Of a DNA stretch of 9,484 nt, positions 1-9,484 are shown one piece after another. The translations under genes were made by a program, and so were the position numbers. The notes under the pieces are model-generated. The model was not told where the DNA came from and ran no database searches. It saw only the letters and a list, made by a program, of their open reading frames with translations. This stretch comes from a virus (lineage: Duplodnaviria; Heunggongvirae; Uroviricota; Caudoviricetes): positions 1 through 9,484 of the IMG/VR virus record IMGVR_UViG_2531839207_000025. The stretch is one strand, 5' to 3'. Position 1 is the stretch's first letter; every line of letters starts with the position of its first letter.

Positions 1-282
1 ATGGTAGATTGCAGCCACGGTAATTCCAATAAAGATTATCGCCGTCAGCCTGCGGTGGCAGAATCCGTGGTTGCTCAAATCAAAGATGGCAATCGCTCAA
101 TTATTGGTCTGATGATCGAAAGTAATATCCACGAGGGCAATCAGTCTTCTGAGCAACCGCGCAGTGAAATGAAATACGGTGTATCCGTAACCGATGCCTG
201 CATTAGCTGGGAAATGACCGATGCCTTGCTGCGTGAAATTCATCAGGATCTGAACGGGCAGCTGACGGCTCGCGTGGCTTAA
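1..282 (+). CDS. aroF: DAHP synthase, tyrosine-sensitive; C-terminal 93 codons only (gene starts upstream of the window)
   Basis: Open frame from window start to a stop at 280-282; the translation matches my memory of the E. coli AroF C-terminus; tyrA follows 10 bp downstream as in the aroF-tyrA operon. Confidence 0.9.
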
Positions 283-292
283 GAGGTTTATT

Positions 293-1414
293 ATGGTTGC
301 TGAATTGACCGCATTACGCGATCAAATTGATGAAGTCGATAAAGCGCTGCTGAATTTATTAGCGAAGCGTCTGGAACTGGTTGCTGAAGTGGGCGAGGTG
401 AAAAGCCGCTTTGGACTGCCTATTTATGTTCCGGAGCGCGAGGCATCTATGTTGGCCTCGCGTCGTGCAGAGGCGGAAGCTCTGGGTGTACCGCCAGATC
501 TGATTGAGGATGTTTTGCGTCGGGTGATGCGTGAATCTTACTCCAGTGAAAACGACAAAGGATTTAAAACACTTTGTCCGTCACTGCGTCCGGTGGTTAT
601 CGTCGGCGGTGGCGGTCAGATGGGACGCCTGTTCGAGAAGATGCTGACACTATCGGGTTATCAGGTGCGGATTCTGGAGCAACATGACTGGGATCGAGCG
701 GCTGATATTGTTGCCGATGCCGGAATGGTGATTGTTAGTGTGCCAATCCACGTTACTGAGCAAGTTATCGGCAAATTACCGCCTTTACCGAAAGATTGTA
801 TTCTGGTTGATCTGGCATCAGTGAAAAATGGACCATTACAGGCCATGCTGGCGGCGCACGATGGCCCGGTACTGGGGTTACACCCGATGTTCGGCCCGGA
901 CAGCGGTAGCCTGGCAAAGCAAGTTGTGGTCTGGTGTGATGGACGTAAGCCGGAAGCATACCAATGGTTTCTGGAGCAAATTCAGGTCTGGGGCGCTCGG
1001 CTGCATCGTATTAGCGCTGTCGAGCACGATCAGAATATGGCGTTTATTCAGGCTCTGCGCCACTTTGCTACTTTTGCTTATGGGCTGCATCTGGCAGAAG
1101 AAAATGTTCAGCTTGAGCAACTTCTGGCGCTCTCTTCGCCGATTTACCGCCTTGAGCTGGCGATGGTCGGGCGACTGTTTGCTCAGGATCCGCAGCTTTA
1201 TGCCGACATTATTATGTCGTCAGAGCGTAATCTGGCGTTAATCAAACGTTACTATAAGCGTTTCGGCGAGGCGATTGAGTTGCTGGAGCAGGGCGATAAG
1301 CAGGCGTTTATTGACAGTTTCCGCAAGGTGGAGCACTGGTTCGGCGATTACGCACAGCGTTTTCAGAGTGAAAGCCGCGTGTTATTGCGTCAGGCGAATG
1401 ACAACCGCCAGTAA
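293..1414 (+). CDS. tyrA: Bifunctional chorismate mutase / prephenate dehydrogenase (T-protein)
   Basis: ATG at 293 preceded by aagagg; 373 aa; translation begins [26 protein letters not shown] and contains the GGGGQMG dinucleotide-binding motif; length and sequence match E. coli TyrA as I recall it. Confidence 0.95.
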
Positions 1415-1421
1415 TAATCCA

Positions 1422-1449
1422 GTGCCGGATGATTCACATCATCCGGCAC
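1422..1449. terminator. Hairpin between the convergent tyrA and pheA 3' ends; likely bidirectional terminator
   Basis: Inverted repeat gtgccggatga / tcatccggcac lies 8 bp after the tyrA stop and 8 bp from the pheA stop; T-rich on the plus side (cttttc), A/T-rich on the other. Confidence 0.5.
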
Positions 1450-1456
1450 CTTTTCA

Positions 1457-2617
1457 TCAGGTTGGATCAACAGGCACTACGTTCTCACTTGGGTAACAGC
1501 CCAATACCTTCATTGAACGGGTAATTTCCCCTAACTCTTTCAATGCTTTTTGCATTTCCGCTGATTCAAGATTGGCCTGAATATCCAGATAAAACATCTC
1601 TTCCCATGGATTACCGTGAATCGGGCGTGATTCCAGACGGGTCATAATCAGATTGTGGTTGCGCAGCACCAGCAACGCTTCAACCAGCGCACCGGCTTGT
1701 TGCCCGGTCGCCATTAACAACGTCGTTTTCGCCGGAACCTGGTCAGACACGTTAATGGCTTTACGTGCCAACACCACAAATCGGGTGAAGTTTTGTTGCT
1801 GATTCGCTTCAATACGCTCCAGTACCTGCAAACCGTACAAAGTGCCGCCAGCTTCGCTTCCCAACGCAGCAACATGCGGTGATTTTGCCTGTGCAACCTT
1901 TTCCATTGCCGCAGACGTACTTTCGGTATATTCAATCTTCCAGTGAGGATAACGATTAAGGAATTTGCTGCATTGCTGGAATGGCTGCGGATGGCTGTAG
2001 ACCGTATTAATAGTGGATAAATCAGTCGTGCCGGAGACCAACAAACAATGGTCGATAGTTAACGTCATCTCGCCAACAATCGACAAGCTGGTATGTTGCA
2101 GCAGATCGTAAACGTCGTTTATGGCACCGGAGCTGGTATTTTCAATCGGTACGACGGCATAGTCGGCCTGGCCGGTTTCCACCTGATTAAAAATATCGGC
2201 AAATTTGGCGCAGCCACTTTCAATGAATTGCTCAAAGTGACGGGCAGCATACTGGCGCGCCGCAAGATGGGAATAAGAACCTTTGGGGCCGAGAAAAGCG
2301 ATGCGTGCTGAGTGCGGATTAATTTTATTGAGATGTTGCTGGAGCAAAGCCTGCTGAGTTAATACGGAATCTTCAATGATGAGCTGGAACAGGCGAGTAA
2401 TGTAATGGGCGTCCAGATGGTGCGCTTTACCGAGCGTAATTAATCTTTCCAGTAAATCGCGTTCACGATCAATATCTCGTACCGGGCGATGCGAGAGCAG
2501 TTTGGCTTTTCCTACCTCGACGGCCAATTCGCGCCGCTCTGCCAGTAATGCTAATAATTTTTCATCCAGCGCGCTGATTTTCTCTCGCAGCGCCAGTAAC
2601 GGGTTTTCCGATGTCAT
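1457..2617 (-). CDS. pheA: Bifunctional chorismate mutase / prephenate dehydratase (P-protein)
   Basis: 386-aa minus-strand ORF starting [32 protein letters not shown]; ATG is the complement of cat at 2615-2617; matches E. coli PheA in length and sequence as I recall it; sits downstream of pheL and the attenuator. Confidence 0.95.
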
Positions 2618-2637
2618 AGTGTTGCCTTTTTGTTATC

Positions 2638-2668
2638 AATAAAAAAGGCCCCCCGATTTGGGAGGCCT
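2638..2668 (-). terminator. pheA attenuator (leader terminator)
   Basis: On the minus strand: GGCCUCCC-AAAUC-GGGGGGCC hairpin (8-bp GC-rich stem with one G-U) followed by UUUUUUAUU, between pheL and pheA. Confidence 0.8.
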
Positions 2669-2715
2669 TATTGTTCGTCTTCGCATTCTGTTTCACACGA
2701 CGAAACGCCTCCCAT

Positions 2716-2763
2716 TCAGGGGAAGGTAAAAAAGAATGCGAAGAAAAACGGTGTGTGTTTCAT
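2716..2763 (-). CDS. pheL: pheA leader peptide, 15 aa: [15 protein letters not shown]
   Basis: Minus-strand reading ATG AAA CAC ACA CCG TTT TTC TTC GCA TTC TTT TTT ACC TTC CCC TGA; seven Phe codons in 15; it is under the track length cutoff, so not listed there. The K-12 peptide I recall has Ile at position 4 (here Thr, ACA). Confidence 0.9.
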   Translation of the reverse strand: [15 protein letters not shown]

Positions 2764-2788
2764 GTTTGTTTCCTTAAGTGACTTTAGT

Positions 2789-2818
2789 ACAGTACCCGTA
2801 CTGTTTTCACGCTGTCAA
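2789..2818 (-). promoter_or_regulatory. pheL-pheA promoter (-35 TTGACA, candidate -10 TACTGT)
   Basis: Minus-strand TTGACA (plus 2813-2818), 18-nt spacer, then TACTGT (plus 2789-2794), about 25 nt upstream of the pheL ATG; the -10 assignment is by eye. Confidence 0.5.
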
Positions 2819-2819
2819 C

Positions 2820-2843
2820 AAAAAACGCGCCCGAAGGTGCGTT
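2820..2843 (-). terminator. Intrinsic terminator just upstream of the pheL promoter (minus-strand direction)
   Basis: Minus-strand ACGCACCUUCGGGCGCG hairpin followed by UUUUUU; placed to stop transcripts arriving from the integrase side. Confidence 0.45.
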
Positions 2844-2846
2844 GTA

Positions 2847-2930
2847 AAACCCACTGAATTCAATGTTTTCCCTTTGTTTTCAGTGGGTTTTGTTATTGGT
2901 GGGGGTTACTGATTACCCTATAAAACCCAC
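2847..2930. repeat. Repeat-rich junction between the chromosomal locus and the integrase stop; candidate attachment region or Int arm sites
   Basis: aaaacccactgaa (2847-2859) and its inverted copy ttcagtgggtttt (2881-2893) form a 13-bp-arm inverted repeat; a third aaaacccact copy at 2921-2930 ends right before the int stop codon. Confidence 0.3.
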
Positions 2931-3920
2931 TTATGTGGATGAAATGTGGATGCCTCCTTTTAACGGATTAAGTGAAATTGCATCCTGGAGGAAATCAGGA
3001 GCGAGGTGCGCATAGGTCATAGTTTGCTGGATCGTGGCGTGCCCCATAATTCGCTGGAGCGTAAGTATATTTCCTCCATTAATCATAAAGTGAGCAGCAA
3101 AGGTATGGCGTAGAACATGTACAGCCTGTCCTTTTGGTAGGTCTGGCTTAACACTGCGAAGCACCTTGCGATATTCCTCATAATTGACGTCAAACAAAAG
3201 GCCGGATTTCTTTGTTTTGATCTCACTAACAACTTCATCAGAGACAGGAATAATTCGAACTTTTCCGTTTTTAGTTTTGTTAAACGTCACGCGATTATTG
3301 ATGATGTGTTCCGCGCGTAGATTTTTCGCTTCTCCCCATCTCGCCCCAGTACTGAGACAAAGTAGCGTAATCCGCCGGGCATCACCGTTTACTGCATCCA
3401 GCAATTTGGCGATTTCTTCCGTAGTGAGGTACGTCATTTCGGGTGATTTTCGTTTCAAAGAGGGGAGGGCGCGGAGTGGATTTTCTCCGTGAAATTCTCC
3501 GGCATTTGCCAGAAGTGTAAACATTCCTCCGAGATCCGACTCATCACGCCGAACAGTAGACTCTTTTACTCCCAAAGATAAACGGGAGCTTCGATAAGCG
3601 GCCATGAAACGAGCATTAATCTGGCTAACCCTTGGATCATTCATTTCTTTGATGATTTTTTTCAACCTGGTTAGAACGCCGTTAGCATATGGCTTATTGC
3701 GTCCACCCAATTCCCACCATAACGGAAGCAGATCTGAGAGATGACGTTGCTCTGTTGGCTTTTCAAGCCATTCCTTATCGTGCATGTGGCTGAGAACATA
3801 ACGCTCAAAGGCCACTGCATCTGCCTTTTTCTTAAAAATCCGCTGAATCCGACGTCCACTTCGGCCACGCGGTCTAACATCCACTTTATACCGTCCACCA
3901 TCGAGCGCTTTAATTGCCAT
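2931..3920 (-). CDS. int: Phage integrase, tyrosine recombinase, P2 Int-like
   Basis: Minus-strand ORF; preferred start at 3920 (MAIKALDGGRYKVDVRPRGR, ggaggg RBS 9 nt upstream) rather than the track start at 3953; C-terminal motifs ILCLSTGARWGEA, HVLRHTFAAHFMINGG, LQRIMGH and YAHLAP fit the tyrosine recombinase R..H-x-x-R..Y pattern; strong resemblance to P2 Int as I recall it. Confidence 0.9.
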   Translation of the reverse strand: MAIKALDGGRYKVDVRPRGRSGRRIQRIFKKKADAVAFERYVLSHMHDKEWLEKPTEQRHLSDLLPLWWELGGRNKPYANGVLTRLKKIIKEMNDPRVSQINARFMAAYRSSRLSLGVKESTVRRDESDLGGMFTLLANAGEFHGENPLRALPSLKRKSPEMTYLTTEEIAKLLDAVNGDARRITLLCLSTGARWGEAKNLRAEHIINNRVTFNKTKNGKVRIIPVSDEVVSEIKTKKSGLLFDVNYEEYRKVLRSVKPDLPKGQAVHVLRHTFAAHFMINGGNILTLQRIMGHATIQQTMTYAHLAPDFLQDAISLNPLKGGIHISST

Positions 3921-3986
3921 TGGCAAGCCCTCCGGTGAAACGAGGAAAGACATTTCCAGTTTGTAAAACGTAAGAATAATAAAGGG

Positions 3987-4289
3987 TTAACCAATTTTCC
4001 TTTCGGATGGGGGTAAGTCCGTTGGCTCTTGCCCATAGTGTGCGAGAGCCGGAGCTATCTGCCCGGATTCAGGCGCAATTTTTCCAGTCATAAACCACAA
4101 CGCATATTTCTCAAATCTGGGGTTGTTTAGTATTTGCTCAATTACTTCAGCATTAGGGATAGTTTTACCGCTTTCATATCTCCACAGAGCATCACGGTTT
4201 AAACCAAGCATTTTTGCTGTATCCGGGAGGCTAGTAAGTCTCTCGCTTTCACGCATGATTTTTATGCGCTCTCCAATAGTCATACGCAT
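3987..4289 (-). CDS. Immunity repressor, P2 C-like (HTH)
   Basis: Translation MRMTIGERIKIMRESERLTSL...WFMTGKIAPESGQIAPALAHYGQ closely resembles P2 C as I recall it; the track start at 4304 is a TTG codon, so I prefer the ATG at 4289 (ggaga 8 nt upstream) or 4283; sits upstream of int on the same strand as in P2. Confidence 0.85.
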   Translation of the reverse strand: MRMTIGERIKIMRESERLTSLPDTAKMLGLNRDALWRYESGKTIPNAEVIEQILNNPRFEKYALWFMTGKIAPESGQIAPALAHYGQEPTDLPPSERKIG

Positions 4290-4384
4290 GTTGCAATTCT
4301 CCAACGTCTGTATTAATGTTTATACAAATGAGTTTGATTTGGGGCATCCGTCGCAAGAAATACCCCAAACAGGGAGATTATCAC
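4290..4384. promoter_or_regulatory. Divergent immunity switch region between the repressor and cox-like genes
   Basis: 95-bp spacer between divergent starts; contains tgTATTAAt and TTGATT promoter-like hexamers and the inverted repeat tttgggg(4339-4345)...ccccaaa(4363-4369); individual promoters and operators not resolved. Confidence 0.45.
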
Positions 4385-4711
4385 ATGAATGAAGAACTAT
4401 TGAGGGCATTGTTTAAGATCCCAGACCCCATCACCGTCGATGAGTTTTCCCGCCGCACAGGTAAGACCGAATCAGCCGTAAGAAAGTTGGTAGAGCGTCG
4501 ACTCATCCCTCTAACTACTGAGCGCGAGGTTTTAGGCGAGGAAGGGAGTTCGCGCCGTCTTCTCATCCTTTGGAATGAGTGGCTCGAAATGGTCTATGAC
4601 GCAACGAAACAACTTCCTCCTGAGCGTAAAGATTGGCGCAATCACTGGCTTAAGAAAGCCAAGAAGCTGGCGGAAGATTTGGGATTAGGCTTTCTTAATT
4701 TTGCTGCATGA
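4385..4711 (+). CDS. Cox/Apl-like excisionase-regulator (small HTH protein)
   Basis: ATG at 4385 with gggag 9 nt upstream; 108 aa; segment VDEFSRRTGKTESAVRKLVERRLIP resembles the P2 Cox DNA-binding region as I recall it; divergent from the repressor gene. Confidence 0.65.
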   Translation: MNEELLRALFKIPDPITVDEFSRRTGKTESAVRKLVERRLIPLTTEREVLGEEGSSRRLLILWNEWLEMVYDATKQLPPERKDWRNHWLKKAKKLAEDLGLGFLNFAA

Positions 4712-4729
4712 GATGCAGGGAGTTTTGAT

Positions 4730-5071
4730 ATGAAACAGCAACGTAATTCACGCTTTCGTAATGGTGCTGAACGCCACGCTAACCGTTTCGCTACCAGTGC
4801 ATCGCGTAGCAACTCTCGCTACAGCCTGAGCGAAACACACGCAACGCCGGATGGCTACCCAGTAAAACAAATCGGCGAGCACGCCTGGTTGATTGAGAAA
4901 GCTGGAATCGTGGTCCACAAATGCCCACGCAACCCATTTACCGGAAACCGCATTTTTGCACTGAGCAACGGCGACAATCAGTTCGGGCAGGATTTCACAT
5001 TATACGAAGCACTTCGCACGGTTGATCGTCTGCTTCGCGGGCAAAGTTTTATTAAACAGGCTGATTTATAA
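4730..5071 (+). CDS. Hypothetical early protein, 113 aa, basic Ser/Arg-rich N-terminus
   Basis: ATG at 4730 with agggag 8 nt upstream, 18 bp after the cox-like stop; I do not recognise the protein. Confidence 0.6.
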   Translation: MKQQRNSRFRNGAERHANRFATSASRSNSRYSLSETHATPDGYPVKQIGEHAWLIEKAGIVVHKCPRNPFTGNRIFALSNGDNQFGQDFTLYEALRTVDRLLRGQSFIKQADL

Positions 5072-5081
5072 CAGGTGCTTT

Positions 5082-5360
5082 ATGACCAAAGAGCATGCAC
5101 AAGGTGTATTTATCCGTTTTATTGATTTTCGCGGTGAACTGTTATTACGCGCATCAGCCATTGACGGAGTTGTTCCATCAGAAAAAAACGCAGCTACTTA
5201 CGTTTATCTGAACGGTACGCGCCTGACTGTGGAGCTTCCGTACCAGACCGTACGAGAAATCATTAGCGAAGCTGAAAAGGCACGTCAGGTTAATGGCGAT
5301 GAACCCTATATCGAAATTATTTGTATGGATTCAGAAGCTGAAATTCAGAAAGCAGATTAA
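5082..5360 (+). CDS. Hypothetical early protein, 92 aa
   Basis: Preferred start ATG at 5082 (aggtg 7 nt upstream), in frame with the track ORF 5022-5360 but not overlapping the upstream gene. Confidence 0.55.
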   Translation: MTKEHAQGVFIRFIDFRGELLLRASAIDGVVPSEKNAATYVYLNGTRLTVELPYQTVREIISEAEKARQVNGDEPYIEIICMDSEAEIQKAD

Positions 5361-5371
5361 AGGGCGTTGCG

Positions 5372-5614
5372 ATGGGCAAAGAATATAAAACTCTCATTAA
5401 CAAAGCACTTGAGCGTTTTTATTTTCGCTTAAGTGCATCAGGCGCTCATGCTGAACGTGCAGCCCGTGACTCATTGACCAGGGCAATCCGGAGTTTGTAT
5501 GACGTCGCTTTTTACGCTGATGATCTGGATGCACTTAACGAACTTTCCGAGCTGATCTGTGCCGCAGAATGCGGGGAACATATTGAACCGTATAAGCTGG
5601 GGAATATCGCATGA
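5372..5614 (+). CDS. Hypothetical early protein, 80 aa
   Basis: ATG at 5372, 11 bp after the previous stop; tightly packed in the same orientation. Confidence 0.5.
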   Translation: MGKEYKTLINKALERFYFRLSASGAHAERAARDSLTRAIRSLYDVAFYADDLDALNELSELICAAECGEHIEPYKLGNIA

Positions 5615-5724
5615 GTATATTTATCTCATGGCTTGTTCTGATGATTTCGGTGGCCTGCGCCATTGGAATTATGCGAATTATTCATTCAGTAAAAAAGATT
5701 GAACGTTTTTTCACTGGTGAATAA
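5611..5724 (+). CDS. Small hydrophobic protein, 37 aa: MSIFISWLVLMISVACAIGIMRIIHSVKKIERFFTGE; one predicted transmembrane helix
   Basis: Its ATG overlaps the upstream TGA (ATGA at 5611-5614); not in the ORF track because of the length cutoff; hydrophobic core followed by a basic tail. Confidence 0.35.
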   Translation: MSIFISWLVLMISVACAIGIMRIIHSVKKIERFFTGE

Positions 5725-5817
5725 CGATACAAATAAAACATCAAATTAAATAAGAAAACGTGAAAACCATCCGTATTAACGGAGGTATTCGCACACGCAA
5801 ATAACGGAGATACAAAA

Positions 5818-6228
5818 ATGCACGCAAAAGAAGAAGGTATCATCAGAGCACTGAAAGAAATTTCAAAGATTGAAAGCGAAGTAGCGAAAAAAGCCGTAGC
5901 AAATGCTCATATAGACGTCGCTACCCACGCAATGATAGTCGCAAAAGTCACGGCAGAAGCCGCCAAAATCATCGAAGAACAGGGTGCGGAACTTACGCTT
6001 TTCAAAACTCAACCAGTCACCGGACTGGATTTATCTAACACCGGACGCCTTATTTACACAATTGGCTCGGAGCTACAGCGATACACCATTATCGCCGGAT
6101 TACAGGGCAAATACCTGATCACTCCTCACCCCATAAGGGAATCAGAAATTCTGACAAATCTCCGCCTGATAGATCGCTCTCAAGTTGCATTCATTGATGA
6201 CGCACAGCACACCGTATTTAACGCATAG
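5818..6228 (+). CDS. Hypothetical protein, 136 aa
   Basis: ATG at 5818 with ggaga 7 nt upstream; preceded by a 93-bp AT-rich spacer; I do not recognise the protein. Confidence 0.6.
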   Translation: MHAKEEGIIRALKEISKIESEVAKKAVANAHIDVATHAMIVAKVTAEAAKIIEEQGAELTLFKTQPVTGLDLSNTGRLIYTIGSELQRYTIIAGLQGKYLITPHPIRESEILTNLRLIDRSQVAFIDDAQHTVFNA

Positions 6229-6255
6229 GGTTATTGGACAAAAAAAGGGGGGGCA

Positions 6256-6459
6256 ATGGCAATTAAGCATTTTCCCGTCGTTCGCTTTACCTCCAGAGGG
6301 CGCGAATACGAGGTCGACGAACGCCTGATTACCACTATCGACAAACATCGTTCGGAAAAGGATGCACACCACATCTACCTCACTGACGGCACTTACTTCT
6401 GCGCCACTAATGTGGCGCGGGTAAACCTTATCCGACAGGTACAGGAGCATCGTAAATGA
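6256..6459 (+). CDS. Hypothetical protein, 67 aa; first gene of a four-gene translationally coupled module
   Basis: ATG at 6256 immediately after an A7-G7 tract that serves as the RBS; its stop overlaps the next start (ATGA). Confidence 0.55.
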   Translation: MAIKHFPVVRFTSRGREYEVDERLITTIDKHRSEKDAHHIYLTDGTYFCATNVARVNLIRQVQEHRK

Positions 6460-6674
6460 GCAGAAAGCGAATCACACGCAGGCATCGCCGCACACACATG
6501 AATTCCTTACCGACGCTGAAAGAACTCATTCAACACGAGATCGCTGATTTCTGCGCACCGCTGGGGTCGCCTGGCGAACCGGAAACGCCAGAAGCGATGC
6601 AGCGCGAACTCATGATGCGCATCGATAACGTTTTTGACTTTTTCCTGAATAACAAAAGAGAGCAATCAACATGA
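6456..6674 (+). CDS. Hypothetical protein, 72 aa, strongly basic N-terminus (SRKRITRRHRRTH)
   Basis: ATGA overlaps at both ends (6456-6459 and 6671-6674). Confidence 0.55.
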   Translation: MSRKRITRRHRRTHMNSLPTLKELIQHEIADFCAPLGSPGEPETPEAMQRELMMRIDNVFDFFLNNKREQST

Positions 6675-6874
6675 ACAAAAAGACCTGGTTTCGCGCATAT
6701 ATGTGGGCGCTGGTATGCGTCCTCGTCTCTCTCATTCTGTATGCAGGACTACTCCCCCGAATGATTTCATCAGACAGCTCCTTCCTGGTATTGCTGGGCA
6801 TTTTCATTGCCATGCTGTACCCGGCAGGCGTTGTTCGCCTTTTCAGTAAGTACATCAAGGAAATCAAACAATGA
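6671..6874 (+). CDS. Small integral membrane protein, 67 aa, two predicted TM helices
   Basis: Hydrophobic stretches WALVCVLVSLILYAGLL and FLVLLGIFIAMLYPAGVV; ATGA overlaps with both neighbours. Confidence 0.6.
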   Translation: MNKKTWFRAYMWALVCVLVSLILYAGLLPRMISSDSSFLVLLGIFIAMLYPAGVVRLFSKYIKEIKQ

Positions 6875-7701
6875 AGAAATTCAAACTCTTTCAGATTCTC
6901 CCGCTTTTTGCCGCCATCCTGCTGGTTGGCTGCGATCGCGTTGAGCCAGGTAATGTGGGCATCAAAGTCAACAAGCTGGGCGACGACAAAGGCGTTGGCG
7001 AAGTGGTTGGCGTTGGCCGCTACTGGACTGGCTGGAATACCGAGGTTTACATCTTCCCGACCTTCAAACAAATGAAGACCTACGATGACCCGTTCAGCTT
7101 CCAGATGAGTGACGGCACAACCATCGGCTATCACATCGGCGTGGCCTACAAGGTCGATCCATCCAAAGTTACCACAGTGTTTCAGACCTACCGCAAAGGC
7201 GTGGACGACATTACCGACACTGACCTGCGCCAGAAGATCGCCGACGCACTCAACCGACTGGCCAGCAAAATGACCACAGATAAATTCATCGACGGTGGCA
7301 AGTCTGAACTGCTGGATTCAGCACTTAAAGATATTCAGGAAGAGATGACCCCCATCGGCATTCAGGTCATGAGCCTCTCTTATGTCGGTAAACCGGAATA
7401 TCCGCCAACCGTTATCGACAGCATTAACGCCAAAGTCACGGCAAACCAGAAAACCCTGCAACGCGAACAGGAAGTCAAGCAACGCGAAGCAGAAGCCAAC
7501 ATGTTGCGCGCAGAAGCTGCCGGACAGGCTGATGCCATTCGCACAAAAGCCCAGGCTGAAGCCGACGCCATTCGTTTACGCGGTGAAGCTCTGCGCCAGA
7601 ATCCCGGCGTTATGGAGCTGGAAGCAATCAACAAATGGAACGGCACGCTACCGCAATACATGACCAGCAATACCGCTGTTCCGTTTGTTCCGGTGAAGTA
7701 A
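6871..7701 (+). CDS. Lipoprotein with SPFH/Band-7 (stomatin/prohibitin/HflKC-like) domain, 276 aa
   Basis: N-terminus MKKFKLFQILPLFAAILLVGC has a lipobox (LVGC); the body, with a long Ala/Glu/Arg-rich predicted helix (REQEVKQREAEANMLRAEAAGQADAIRTKAQAEADAIRLRGEA), resembles SPFH-family organisation; assigned from sequence pattern, not a search. Confidence 0.75.
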   Translation: MKKFKLFQILPLFAAILLVGCDRVEPGNVGIKVNKLGDDKGVGEVVGVGRYWTGWNTEVYIFPTFKQMKTYDDPFSFQMSDGTTIGYHIGVAYKVDPSKVTTVFQTYRKGVDDITDTDLRQKIADALNRLASKMTTDKFIDGGKSELLDSALKDIQEEMTPIGIQVMSLSYVGKPEYPPTVIDSINAKVTANQKTLQREQEVKQREAEANMLRAEAAGQADAIRTKAQAEADAIRLRGEALRQNPGVMELEAINKWNGTLPQYMTSNTAVPFVPVK

Positions 7702-7707
7702 TTAAAC

Positions 7708-7732
7708 CCGGCCAGTGAAAACCGCTGGCCGG
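7708..7732 (+). terminator. GC-rich hairpin 7 bp after the SPFH gene stop; possible terminator or RNA-stability element
   Basis: ccggccag / ctggccgg 8-bp stem with a 9-nt loop; the nearest T-run (atttttt, 7745-7751) is 12 nt downstream, so not a canonical intrinsic terminator. Confidence 0.3.
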
Positions 7733-7869
7733 AGCAGTATCAGGATTTTTTAGTATGCCGTTCTCACAAAAAAACCGCTTGCCATGCCGCAATCAGTCAG
7801 GTTACATTTCCGCTGCACCTCATAAAACGGGTGCCGGGTTTCGCAGCCTGCTGACTACAAGAGCGCACA

Positions 7870-7889
7870 ACCGCGCCAGCGGTTTTTTT
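7870..7889 (+). terminator. Candidate intrinsic terminator inside the ORF-free spacer
   Basis: accgc-gcca-gcggt short hairpin immediately followed by seven T; a second T7 run at 7910-7916 has only a weak stem before it. Confidence 0.35.
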
Positions 7890-7930
7890 GTGCGTACTGT
7901 ATTGCCACGTTTTTTTCGCGTCAGAATTAT

Positions 7931-8006
7931 GGCGGGGCGTACGGGGCCGACTTCGGTCGGGCCGGGATCTCTTGTAGCCGGTACTGCGAACCTCGTACGT
8001 CTCGCC
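7931..8006 (+). ncRNA. Candidate structured RNA element, 76 nt, family unknown
   Basis: 13-bp closing stem ggcggggcgtacg (7931-7943) / cgtacgtctcgcc (7994-8006) with two G-U pairs that would be A-C mismatches on the opposite strand; internal hairpin GGGCCGAC-UUCG-GUCGGGCC (7944-7963); in an ORF-free spacer. Confidence 0.25.
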
Positions 8007-8068
8007 ACCCACAGTTTCGCAGCTCTGGATGGTGAGTTTTCACAACTTACTACAAGAGGCCACATATC

Positions 8069-8299
8069 ATGGCAAACCGCAAACAGCACCGCGCTATCGC
8101 GGAGCGTCGTCACATCCAGACTGAAATCAACCACAGACTTTCCCGCGCATCACGCGTCGCGCAAATCATGCACATCAATATGCTGCATGAGCGCAGCCAC
8201 GCACTATCAAACATTTATTCCGCCTCTGTTTTCAGCTATCTGGCGGATGATCTGCACGAGCTTCAACAGCTCATCCAGCAGCAAAACAAACTCCATTAA
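8069..8299 (+). CDS. Hypothetical protein, 76 aa
   Basis: ATG at 8069 with aagagg 9 nt upstream; ordinary amino acid composition, unlike the overlapping 206-codon frame. Confidence 0.5.
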   Translation: MANRKQHRAIAERRHIQTEINHRLSRASRVAQIMHINMLHERSHALSNIYSASVFSYLADDLHELQQLIQQQNKLH

Positions 8300-8371
8300 T
8301 TCCTGTTCCGGGCCTTTCCTGCACCTTGCGGCGGGAGGCCTTCGCACATCTGTAACAAGAGGATTGCCGCA

Positions 8372-8737
8372 ATGATTCTCGCCAACGACTTTCTTGAATA
8401 CCTGCTCAACACAGAACGTGATCTTGCCGCTCGCGTGCGTGATCGTTATGACATGTACCTGAAATCCCTGCCTGTACCGCAGCTCGCTGACGGAAAGATT
8501 GTTATTGATGGTCGCTACATGATTGACAGCCACGAGGGAAATTACAGGCTTTACCGCATTGAAGGTGGCACCCAGTCCGTTATTGGCATTTACCAGCGCC
8601 CATCCTCTGCAATCGTCGATGTGATTGCCGACAGCATCCGCATCACACATCGCCATGCCGACACAGAAGACACCGTGCTGGAAATTCAGCGGCTGGCTAC
8701 AGTCTGCCGCGACACCCTGAATGGCATGACGAAGTAA
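8372..8737 (+). CDS. Hypothetical protein, 121 aa
   Basis: ATG at 8372 with aagagg 9 nt upstream; directly precedes the large downstream gene. Confidence 0.6.
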   Translation: MILANDFLEYLLNTERDLAARVRDRYDMYLKSLPVPQLADGKIVIDGRYMIDSHEGNYRLYRIEGGTQSVIGIYQRPSSAIVDVIADSIRITHRHADTEDTVLEIQRLATVCRDTLNGMTK

Positions 8738-8743
8738 ATCACT

Positions 8744-9484
8744 ATGACGGCAGAGTACATCAGGGACTGGCAACAACCGCGCCACGCAGTGGGGCGTGAA
8801 GGAACGGGGATCCCCGCTCCTGAATCCGCGCTTTCCTCCTGGCTGGATGCCTACCGGGTAGAGAACGAGCGCCGCCAGGAAATGGCTGATGCGGCGTTCT
8901 CCGCCACGCCGCTGGGCAACCTGATTAATAAAAGCCTGGACGCACAGGAAAAACAGGACAAAACCATCACACTGGCAGGAGACGCCAGAAAACAGGCACG
9001 CGGCGCGGTGGATGAAGCCATGGCCTCGCTGCGCCTGCTGCCGTCCTATCTGCGCGATCCGCTTATTCGCCACCTCTCCTTCCTGCGCAAAAAACAGGAA
9101 GCCGATCGCCGGAAAGGCAAAAAGAGCTGGCAGGCGGAACGCTATGCACGCGGAACCCTGCGCAAAATATTCGAACGTCTGGATAGCACTGACGGACGCT
9201 GGCTGACACCGGGTTATCGCTCCCTTGCCGGACGCGAACGCCTGGACGATTTGCTTTACCTGCCGCAGCTCAACAAACACCAGATACAGACGCTGGCCAC
9301 CATGACGGCGGCGATGTTCAGCAGCACCTTCGAAAAACTCTGCGATGGCTTTGGCGCGACCGATGGCGAGCTGACCATGGATGTAACCCTGAAGGCGTAT
9401 CAGATGCTGGCCCGCATGGCGTTACACCTGCACGCCATGCCTCCACATTATGACGCACTGACAACAGACAAAGACCGGAGGAAC
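8744..9484 (+). CDS. 5' part of a large gene, open to the window end; possibly a P2 gpA-like replication initiation endonuclease
   Basis: ATG at 8744, 6 bp after the previous stop, in frame with no stop for 247 codons to the window end (missing from the track because it has no stop); the position after int-C-cox and small early ORFs corresponds to gene A in P2-like phages; sequence resemblance to gpA is from weak memory. Confidence 0.55.
   Translation, partial: MTAEYIRDWQQPRHAVGREGTGIPAPESALSSWLDAYRVENERRQEMADAAFSATPLGNLINKSLDAQEKQDKTITLAGDARKQARGAVDEAMASLRLLPSYLRDPLIRHLSFLRKKQEADRRKGKKSWQAERYARGTLRKIFERLDSTDGRWLTPGYRSLAGRERLDDLLYLPQLNKHQIQTLATMTAAMFSSTFEKLCDGFGATDGELTMDVTLKAYQMLARMALHLHAMPPHYDALTTDKDRRN

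Follow-up and report, generated by a model that had tools for sequence, protein, structure and literature searches.

A conserved early-gene module ending in a 37-residue predicted membrane peptide follows cox in a P88-like prophage of Escherichia coli

We have analyzed a block of four genes located at positions 4730-5724 of a 9,484-nucleotide stretch of viral DNA (positions 1-9,484 of IMG/VR record IMGVR_UViG_2531839207_000025; referred to here as the window), where they directly follow the cox-like gene of a P2-family prophage. As judged by comparison of related loci, the constant core of this block is a DUF4761 protein, a DUF4754 protein and a predicted inner-membrane peptide of 37-49 amino acids (aa), and the 92-aa gene found between the first two is an optional insert. 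The 37-aa open reading frame (ORF) that closes the block is, on the strength of its conservation across related loci, a real gene; ORF length alone means little in this respect. The block occupies the slot held by orf78 and B in phage P2 and by cII, fil and dhr in phage 186.

A first-pass annotation of the same DNA, made from the sequence alone, had described four tightly packed genes of 113, 92, 80 and 37 aa after cox, in the position of P2 orf78 and B, and the coordinates, strand and slot were all borne out. It had also called the genes unrecognized, which they are not. Two encode members of Pfam families (DUF4761 and DUF4754), a third belongs to phrog_3800, and all four are annotated both by PGAP in RefSeq and in the P88 record. 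The sequences and families of the block are thus already known. Near-identical annotated copies exist in hundreds of genomes as well as in P88 and PhiSM, both of them cultured phages, and the block is a catalogued and unremarkable component of a prophage lineage that is very common.

Results

The 37-aa peptide gene

The four genes are all on the plus strand and are separated, counting from cox, by 18, 10, 11 and -4 nt, with 93 nt to the next gene (Table 1). The negative value reflects an overlap in which the ATG of the peptide gene at 5611 runs into the TGA of the DUF4754 gene at 5612-5614 (atcgcATGAgta). A Shine-Dalgarno-like, purine-rich GGGGAA is found 9-14 nt upstream of the peptide start. 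The ATGA overlap, to which the first-pass annotation had drawn attention, is present, although it is not distinctive, as such overlaps occur at four of the nine junctions of the early operon. The 37-aa ORF was indeed missing from the ORF track used at that stage, which is an effect of a length cut-off, but it had already been annotated as WP_000021656.1 by PGAP and as gp07 (“membrane protein”) in P88.

A 37-codon ORF alone is no evidence of a gene, and the window contains 110 ORFs of at least 30 aa. This abundance is what lends some appeal to the idea that the frame is a chance ORF within a conserved untranslated or regulatory stretch. That idea is nonetheless scarcely credible in view of the related loci. 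The first 85 of these (L001-L085) retain the block as a unit, with DNA that is 92-98% identical. The frame occurs in them as 32 different full-length DNA alleles, none of which has an internal stop; both alternative frames always contain stops, the variable sites favor the third codon position (10, 4 and 15 sites at the first, second and third positions, respectively), and the amino-acid substitutions are conservative. The start context with its Shine-Dalgarno-like stretch is also conserved. When the peptide is compared with divergent lineages, the proportion of nonsynonymous differences (pN, 0.15-0.25) is far below that of synonymous differences (pS, 0.5-0.8, a saturating divergence), which indicates purifying selection.

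Divergent relatives were gathered via neighboring genes and an exhaustive DUF4754 profile search. The coupled DUF4754-peptide pair was intact in all 105 related loci (102 by motif search and three divergent Citrobacter loci), and a search for homologs that lack the 37-codon frame or carry stops in it found none. The proposal of a conserved single-transmembrane peptide, ATGA-coupled to its upstream gene in related prophages, therefore holds over 105 loci and six lineages. In these six DUF4754 lineages a small hydrophobic ORF sits at the same GCATGA junction, even though some of the DUF4754 proteins are just 35-41% identical to that of the window; for one further lineage, P0294, no locus was found in viral or metagenome contigs, and the peptide count excludes it. 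The peptide is 59-76% identical to its counterparts in four compared divergent lineages and 24% identical in the Citrobacter lineage. In the four lineages whose DUF4754 is approximately 40% identical to that of the window, peptide identity is 59-70% in three and 24% in Citrobacter, so that the peptide is more conserved than DUF4754 in three of the four.

The peptide (MSIFISWLVLMISVACAIGIMRIIHSVKKIERFFTGE) has a hydrophobic stretch at residues 3-24 with a Kyte-Doolittle peak of 2.66 (17-residue window), which predicts one transmembrane helix. From the positions of its charged residues, its topology is likely N-out and C-in, with approximately two residues outside the membrane and a positively charged cytoplasmic tail. 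Residues M1, F4, S6, W7, L10, G19, I20, R22, I24, I30, E31 and F34 are invariant over seven peptide types. Conservation extends to a motif of small residues (S13, A17 and G19), to R22 at the inner interface and to an IE..FTG tail. Most lineages encode a 41-aa peptide of the pattern M[SN][IV]F[ILM]SW..L.I[SA]...A.GI[MV]R[IV]I...[KRN].[IV]E..FTG[ED], and these 41-aa forms end in a short basic tail, e.g. KRRK. The Citrobacter freundii peptide is longer (49 aa) and more divergent, and retains the SW, S, A and R positions and the E.

At one locus (L188 3248-4158, E. coli strain E2386), all sequence to the left of the peptide gene has been lost through an IS1 insertion, and the gene itself is intact beside the transposase. 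This arrangement matches a database protein in which the IS1 transposase is fused to part of DUF4754.

Composition and mobility of the module

Over the 105 related loci, the DUF4754 gene was present in 105, the DUF4761 gene in 104, the 92-aa gene in 88 and a 136-aa gene downstream of the block in 39. The slot between DUF4761 and DUF4754 is filled by the 92-aa gene or an unrelated 84-aa gene, or is empty, and some lineages have an extra small gene 5' of DUF4761. The block is consequently not a set of four equal partners, as it had been presented in the first-pass annotation, because the slot that holds the 92-aa gene is an exchangeable one. At locus L105, DUF4754 is window-like (82% identical) and the peptide is of the L095 type, showing that recombination can part DUF4754 from its peptide. 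The pair was seen within P2-like early operons in every one of the 105 loci and nowhere else, and its matches in the phage database were confined to the same 14 records for both proteins. Of 5426 complete E. coli genomes, 1318 (~24%) carry the block at a coverage of at least 80%.

The block follows immunity modules of various kinds: the C/cox pair in the window, a P2-type cox in 27 loci, and, in E. coli O157:H7 (L187 5040-6971, strain 2-6-2), a 134-aa regulator together with a 67-aa DNA-binding protein. These differing upstream modules indicate that the block travels as one piece and is not tied to the switch genes.

The DUF4761, 92-aa and DUF4754 proteins

Residues 1-37 of the DUF4761 protein form a disordered, arginine-rich and very basic tail with an isoelectric point of 11.9. 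An AlphaFold2 model of the protein has five strands and one helix, with a predicted local distance difference test (pLDDT) score of ~87 at residues 38-105 and below 50 at residues 1-28. The pN/pS ratio of the gene is 0.05-0.44, and purifying selection was seen on every core gene. The frame of the 92-aa protein is open from 5022, with the ATG at 5082 and the end at 5360, and its AlphaFold2 model comprises five strands, a helix and a hairpin. As the DUF4761 and 92-aa models each have five strands and a helix, paralogy of the two proteins was considered and rejected on an hhalign probability of 0.1%. DUF4754 is probably a helical bundle, judging its sequence by eye. A DUF4754 profile search of 1.84 billion representative proteins returned 29 hits, corresponding to approximately six full-length 50%-identity clusters, all of which were members of the same small family or spurious repeats.

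Relation to the P2 and 186 early genes

In P2, cox is followed by orf78, B and a terminator, and in 186 the corresponding genes are cII, fil and dhr, followed by the terminator tR1. The first-pass annotation had been unable to match the block to P2 early proteins, and we likewise detected no homology of the four proteins to P2 orf78 and B or to 186 CII, Fil and Dhr using BLASTP, Pfam, PHROGs and profile comparison. The sensitive searches that it had recommended thus returned no P2 or 186 relatives, although they did find known DUF families; they revealed no function. For 186 CII (Phage_CP76, PF06892; a helix-turn-helix (HTH) activator of ~169 aa), there was no match among the four proteins at E values up to 1, and hhalign probabilities were below 0.2%. 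For 186 Fil (Phage_186_Fil, PF10893), there was no Pfam match and the best hhalign probability, reached by DUF4761 in an alignment of 19 columns, was 1.9%; probabilities against fil and dhr overall were at most 2%. A relationship of DUF4754 to the C-terminal part of P2 B, raised by a BLASTP match at E 0.003 in a 16-protein database, was rejected as it was not upheld by profiles. Against P2 B (phrog_235), DUF4754 scored 0.9 bits in hmmsearch and had an hhalign probability of 0.4% with a score of 13.3, lower than the best shuffled score of 15.9; this comparison used no profile of B, since the loci retrieved with P2 B share 99-100% identity.

The block and orf78-B were never found together (0 of 105 and 0 of 80 loci), and tblastn gave no match to B in the 105 module loci. 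Taken with the P2-type cox of the 27 module loci, this mutual exclusion suggests that the block and orf78-B act as alternative cassettes behind one switch gene. In the phage collection, B homologs were found in Peduovirus-type records only and none in Xuanwuvirus-type records.

Transcription signals and the downstream hairpin

No plus-strand terminator was found between cox and the block, and no convincing internal promoter was detected. Three promoter-like sites were observed, compared to 4.6 expected by chance. One weak site lies within the DUF4754 gene (5397-5425; 9 of 12 matches), and such sites are no more common than in shuffled sequence. Together with the shared orientation and the 10-18-nt gaps, the lack of such signals suggests that the block probably shares the transcript of cox, made from the early promoter, and is probably silent during lysogeny and turned on by infection or induction. 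The block is also found in the phage record of PhiSM (Shae_phiSM), and PhiSM lysogens grow like the wild type (PMC6456863), which fits repression of the block in the prophage.

A conserved non-coding element lies past the peptide gene. Within it, an inverted repeat of 5 bp, TCCGT-ATTA-ACGGA (5770-5783), stands between AAAAC and GG-ATTC. The element has the form AAAAC-N-A-TCCGY-N4-RCGGA-GG-N-ATTC; it occurs once per locus in 92 loci, as opposed to 0.03 occurrences expected in the window, and it is retained in distant lineages despite differing flanking sequence. The inner stem of the hairpin is invariably preserved and shows a single compensatory change, from C:G to U:A; the loops vary and the outer stem is weak. 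Read on the minus strand, the hairpin is followed by a T run and resembles a terminator for leftward transcription, whereas the plus strand has no T run. An Rfam scan of 4200-7000 gave nothing significant, including for the hairpin element. We considered the peptide as a regulatory leader of the hairpin, which is unlikely given that 46 nt separate the hairpin from the stop and that the amino-acid sequence is itself conserved. At four loci of a single lineage (L097 ~3035-3130, and also L098, L101 and L104), a second small hydrophobic ORF of ~31 aa (MKNVKAIHTIATVWVIFQVSALIWLALKIWE) is located 3' of the 41-aa peptide and replaces the hairpin element.

The variable early region begins directly after the hairpin, in the window with the 136-aa gene (5818-6228; phrog_9338; 39 of 105 loci). 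Its product was rejected as a relative of 186 Fil, the BLASTP match being at E 0.03 in a tiny database with no Pfam Fil match.

Prophage setting

By sequence similarity, the window prophage is a P88-like P2-family element of the genus Xuanwuvirus (Peduoviridae). DNA searches gave ~93% identity in matching stretches to phage P88, vB_EcoM-569R5 and Citrobacter phage Shae_phiSM, and the nearest E. coli chromosomes are 94-97% identical with a prophage at the identical site. The left part of the window contains the end of aroF, tyrA, pheA (minus strand) and the pheL leader, after which the prophage begins. At 2600-3953, the prophage directly adjoins pheL (the pheA leader) with its integrase towards pheL, and the closest E. 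coli genomes have the same prophage type at the same site. The cox-like protein shares 28% identity with P2 Cox (E 5e-8 against a database of 16 proteins), and an A replication endonuclease of the same kind is encoded downstream of the block.

Further along, a 67-aa membrane protein (phrog_1130; 6671-6874) has an ATGA overlap with a 276-aa SPFH-domain protein (6871-7701), which carries a lipoprotein-type signal (LLVGC) and has weak similarity to HflK and HflC. The phrog_1130 protein is found in just 21 of the 105 related loci, and with the SPFH gene resembles an accessory cargo set, for which PADLOC gave no match.

Table 1. Features of the prophage early region in the window
Feature	Position	Strand	Evidence and remarks
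Integrase	2931-3953	-	
C-type immunity repressor (HTH), divergent from the early operon	3987-4304	-	HTH_31, HTH_19, HTH_3; phrog_147 transcriptional regulator; RefSeq annotation
cox-like gene, first of the rightward early operon	4385-4711	+	Pfam Phage_Cox 1.3e-5, 25.3 bits (just below the cut-off of 27.5)
DUF4761 protein, 113 aa	4730-5071	+	Pfam PF15958, 230.7 bits (threshold 27), E 2.1e-69, profile 1-105/105; phrog_2492
92-aa acidic protein	5082-5360	+	No Pfam family; phrog_3800, E 4e-59, positions 1-95/95
DUF4754 protein, 80 aa, mildly acidic	5372-5614	+	Pfam PF15946, 181.7 bits (threshold 27), E 2.8e-54, profile 1-80/80; phrog_2549
GCATGA junction	5608-5614	+	Last Ala codon and TGA of DUF4754 overlap the peptide ATG; identical in all lineages examined
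37-aa predicted single-pass membrane peptide	5611-5724	+	No protein family; RefSeq WP_000021656.1, P88 gp07
Conserved non-coding element	5759-5796	.	46 nt past the peptide stop; right-hand end of the conserved block

Searches for function

Sequence, profile and fold searches gave no function for the block. PDB sequence searches with three of the proteins found nothing below E 0.25, and the DUF4761 model matched only uncharacterized proteins in BFVD, none at E ≤0.001. NCBIfam had no match for the block proteins, and PADLOC-DB had no meaningful match, the best being to a restriction-enzyme model (E 0.012, 11.4 bits). Literature searches on DUF4761, DUF4754, the RefSeq and P88 accessions and CP-933T returned no papers. 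The block genes are not discussed in the P88 and PhiSM papers, and the P88 paper assigns them no function. A holin-like role, as put forward in the first-pass annotation, is unlikely for the peptide. It has the transmembrane helix of a holin, but its gene belongs to the early operon, where it is the fourth after cox and precedes A, rather than to a lysis cassette, and no lysis gene was found near it.

Discussion

Phage 186 encodes inhibitors of cell division and of host replication at the equivalent map position, and for this reason we tentatively favor a role for the block in early host takeover at the inner membrane, where it may block division or another envelope or replication process as a functional counterpart of 186 Fil/Dhr. 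The transmembrane face of the peptide (S13, A17 and G19) would contact a specific host inner-membrane helix, or itself, and the conserved R22, IE and FTG of the cytoplasmic tail would contact a cytoplasmic partner, for which DUF4754 is the obvious candidate. DUF4754, made in step with the peptide via coupled translation, would probably act alongside it on the cytoplasmic side. We prefer a specific helix contact over unspecific membrane damage because the small-residue motif and the tail are strongly conserved. More doubtfully, DUF4761, DUF4754 and the peptide could be an obligatorily linked early module, not described as such and alternative to orf78-B, in which the peptide binds a specific host inner-membrane protein and thereby halts division, envelope growth or DNA entry. 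In a more speculative extension, the arginine-rich tail of DUF4761 would act on the hairpin that closes the block.

Several points weigh against host takeover. Operon position is weak evidence, as the slot holds unrelated functions in different phages: P2 has a helicase-loader-like protein there, and 186 an activator of lysogeny. The timing of expression is deduced from gene layout, and the pairing at L105 indicates that DUF4754 and the peptide are without tight co-adaptation.

Other roles can be weighed on the same evidence. Early exclusion of superinfecting phage DNA is known from Imm and Sp of T4, and the peptide and DUF4754 could similarly block the DNA entry of other phages soon after infection, during lytic growth. 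A small inner-membrane protein made early, as the layout suggests, would be suitable for this, and high peptide conservation would suit binding to a conserved host membrane component for DNA entry. Exclusion is nevertheless unlikely, because there is no similarity to known exclusion proteins and no sign of a periplasmic domain, with just ~2 residues outside the membrane, and because the block, if repressed in the lysogen, cannot protect it. A DnaB-loading or lagging-strand function in place of P2 B would account for the mutual exclusion of the block and orf78-B behind the same cox type, for the lack of any B homolog found in Xuanwuvirus-type records and for the same kind of A replication endonuclease downstream. 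We regard such a replication helper as rather improbable: the hhalign comparison with B fell under the shuffled best, a membrane peptide is unexpected in a helicase loader, and a B replacement is not required, since 186, which uses host DnaC, is also without B.

Inhibition of host immunity by at least one of the proteins, for example of a membrane-bound abortive-infection effector, would be in keeping with the early-operon position, the small size of the proteins, the restriction of these orphan families to one phage lineage and the exchangeable slot of the 92-aa gene, of a kind that accessory counter-defence genes often occupy. The core trio is constant over lineages and hosts, unlike most anti-defence genes, and no significant structural match to a known anti-defence protein was found, which makes this explanation improbable by a wide measure. 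It is also very improbable that the peptide depolarizes the membrane and that DUF4754 neutralizes or times it, as a toxin-antitoxin or early lysis-timing pair. The arrangement of a soluble gene with an ATGA overlap into a small hydrophobic gene is that of many antitoxin-toxin pairs, yet such overlaps are common in this operon, the pair lacks the varied genomic contexts of a toxin-antitoxin system and was seen only in the P2-like early operon (105 of 105 loci), partner alleles recombine freely, the specific conserved motifs oppose a generic pore former, and PADLOC gave no match.

The module is constant over a large prophage lineage and contains a strongly constrained peptide of 37-41 aa; the strictly conserved DUF4754-peptide pair is the one feature of the block that merits experiment. 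P88 and PhiSM plaque on laboratory E. coli, so its function is directly testable. The target of the peptide, once found, would explain what such phages do instead of using P2 B or 186 Fil/Dhr, and could expose a peptide that naturally inhibits some membrane process of the host. If a linked module does bind a host membrane protein, approximately a quarter of E. coli genomes would hold a silent, inducible inhibitor of a conserved membrane target.

Comparison with known systems

The block is most similar to gp04-gp07 of Xuanwuvirus P88 (NC_026014), which has the same order of cox, DUF4761, a hypothetical protein, DUF4754 and the 37-aa membrane protein, with the same 4-nt overlap. Beyond the DNA identity given above, DUF4754 is 100% and the peptide 97% identical between the two. 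P88 differs in being without the 136-aa gene after the peptide. P2 orf78 and B, the latter encoding gpB of lagging-strand synthesis, share with the block the slot directly 3' of cox and, in some loci, the same cox type. However, P2 has a canonical plus-strand terminator after B, where the window has a hairpin without a plus-strand T run, and no membrane peptide at the equivalent position.

Small single-pass peptides that block division or bind membrane proteins are known from other systems. Caulobacter SidA and DidA and phage SPO1 gp56 block cell division, a precedent that favors host takeover, and E. coli Blr, AcrZ and MgtS are of the same size class; such peptides have ~30-80 aa and one transmembrane helix, and act via helix-to-helix contacts. 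The window peptide has no sequence relationship to any of these six.

The closest analogy for the possible mode of action of the block may be 186 fil and dhr. These two small genes likewise overlap, by 14 nt, and they close the first early segment, in which they follow apl and cII. Their products differ from those of the block in size (Fil 75 aa, Dhr 66 aa) and show no homology to them, such that no common family membership can be claimed. In the 186 record, fil is annotated as “overexpression blocks cell division” and dhr as “inhibits host DNA replication”, and neither is needed for phage replication.

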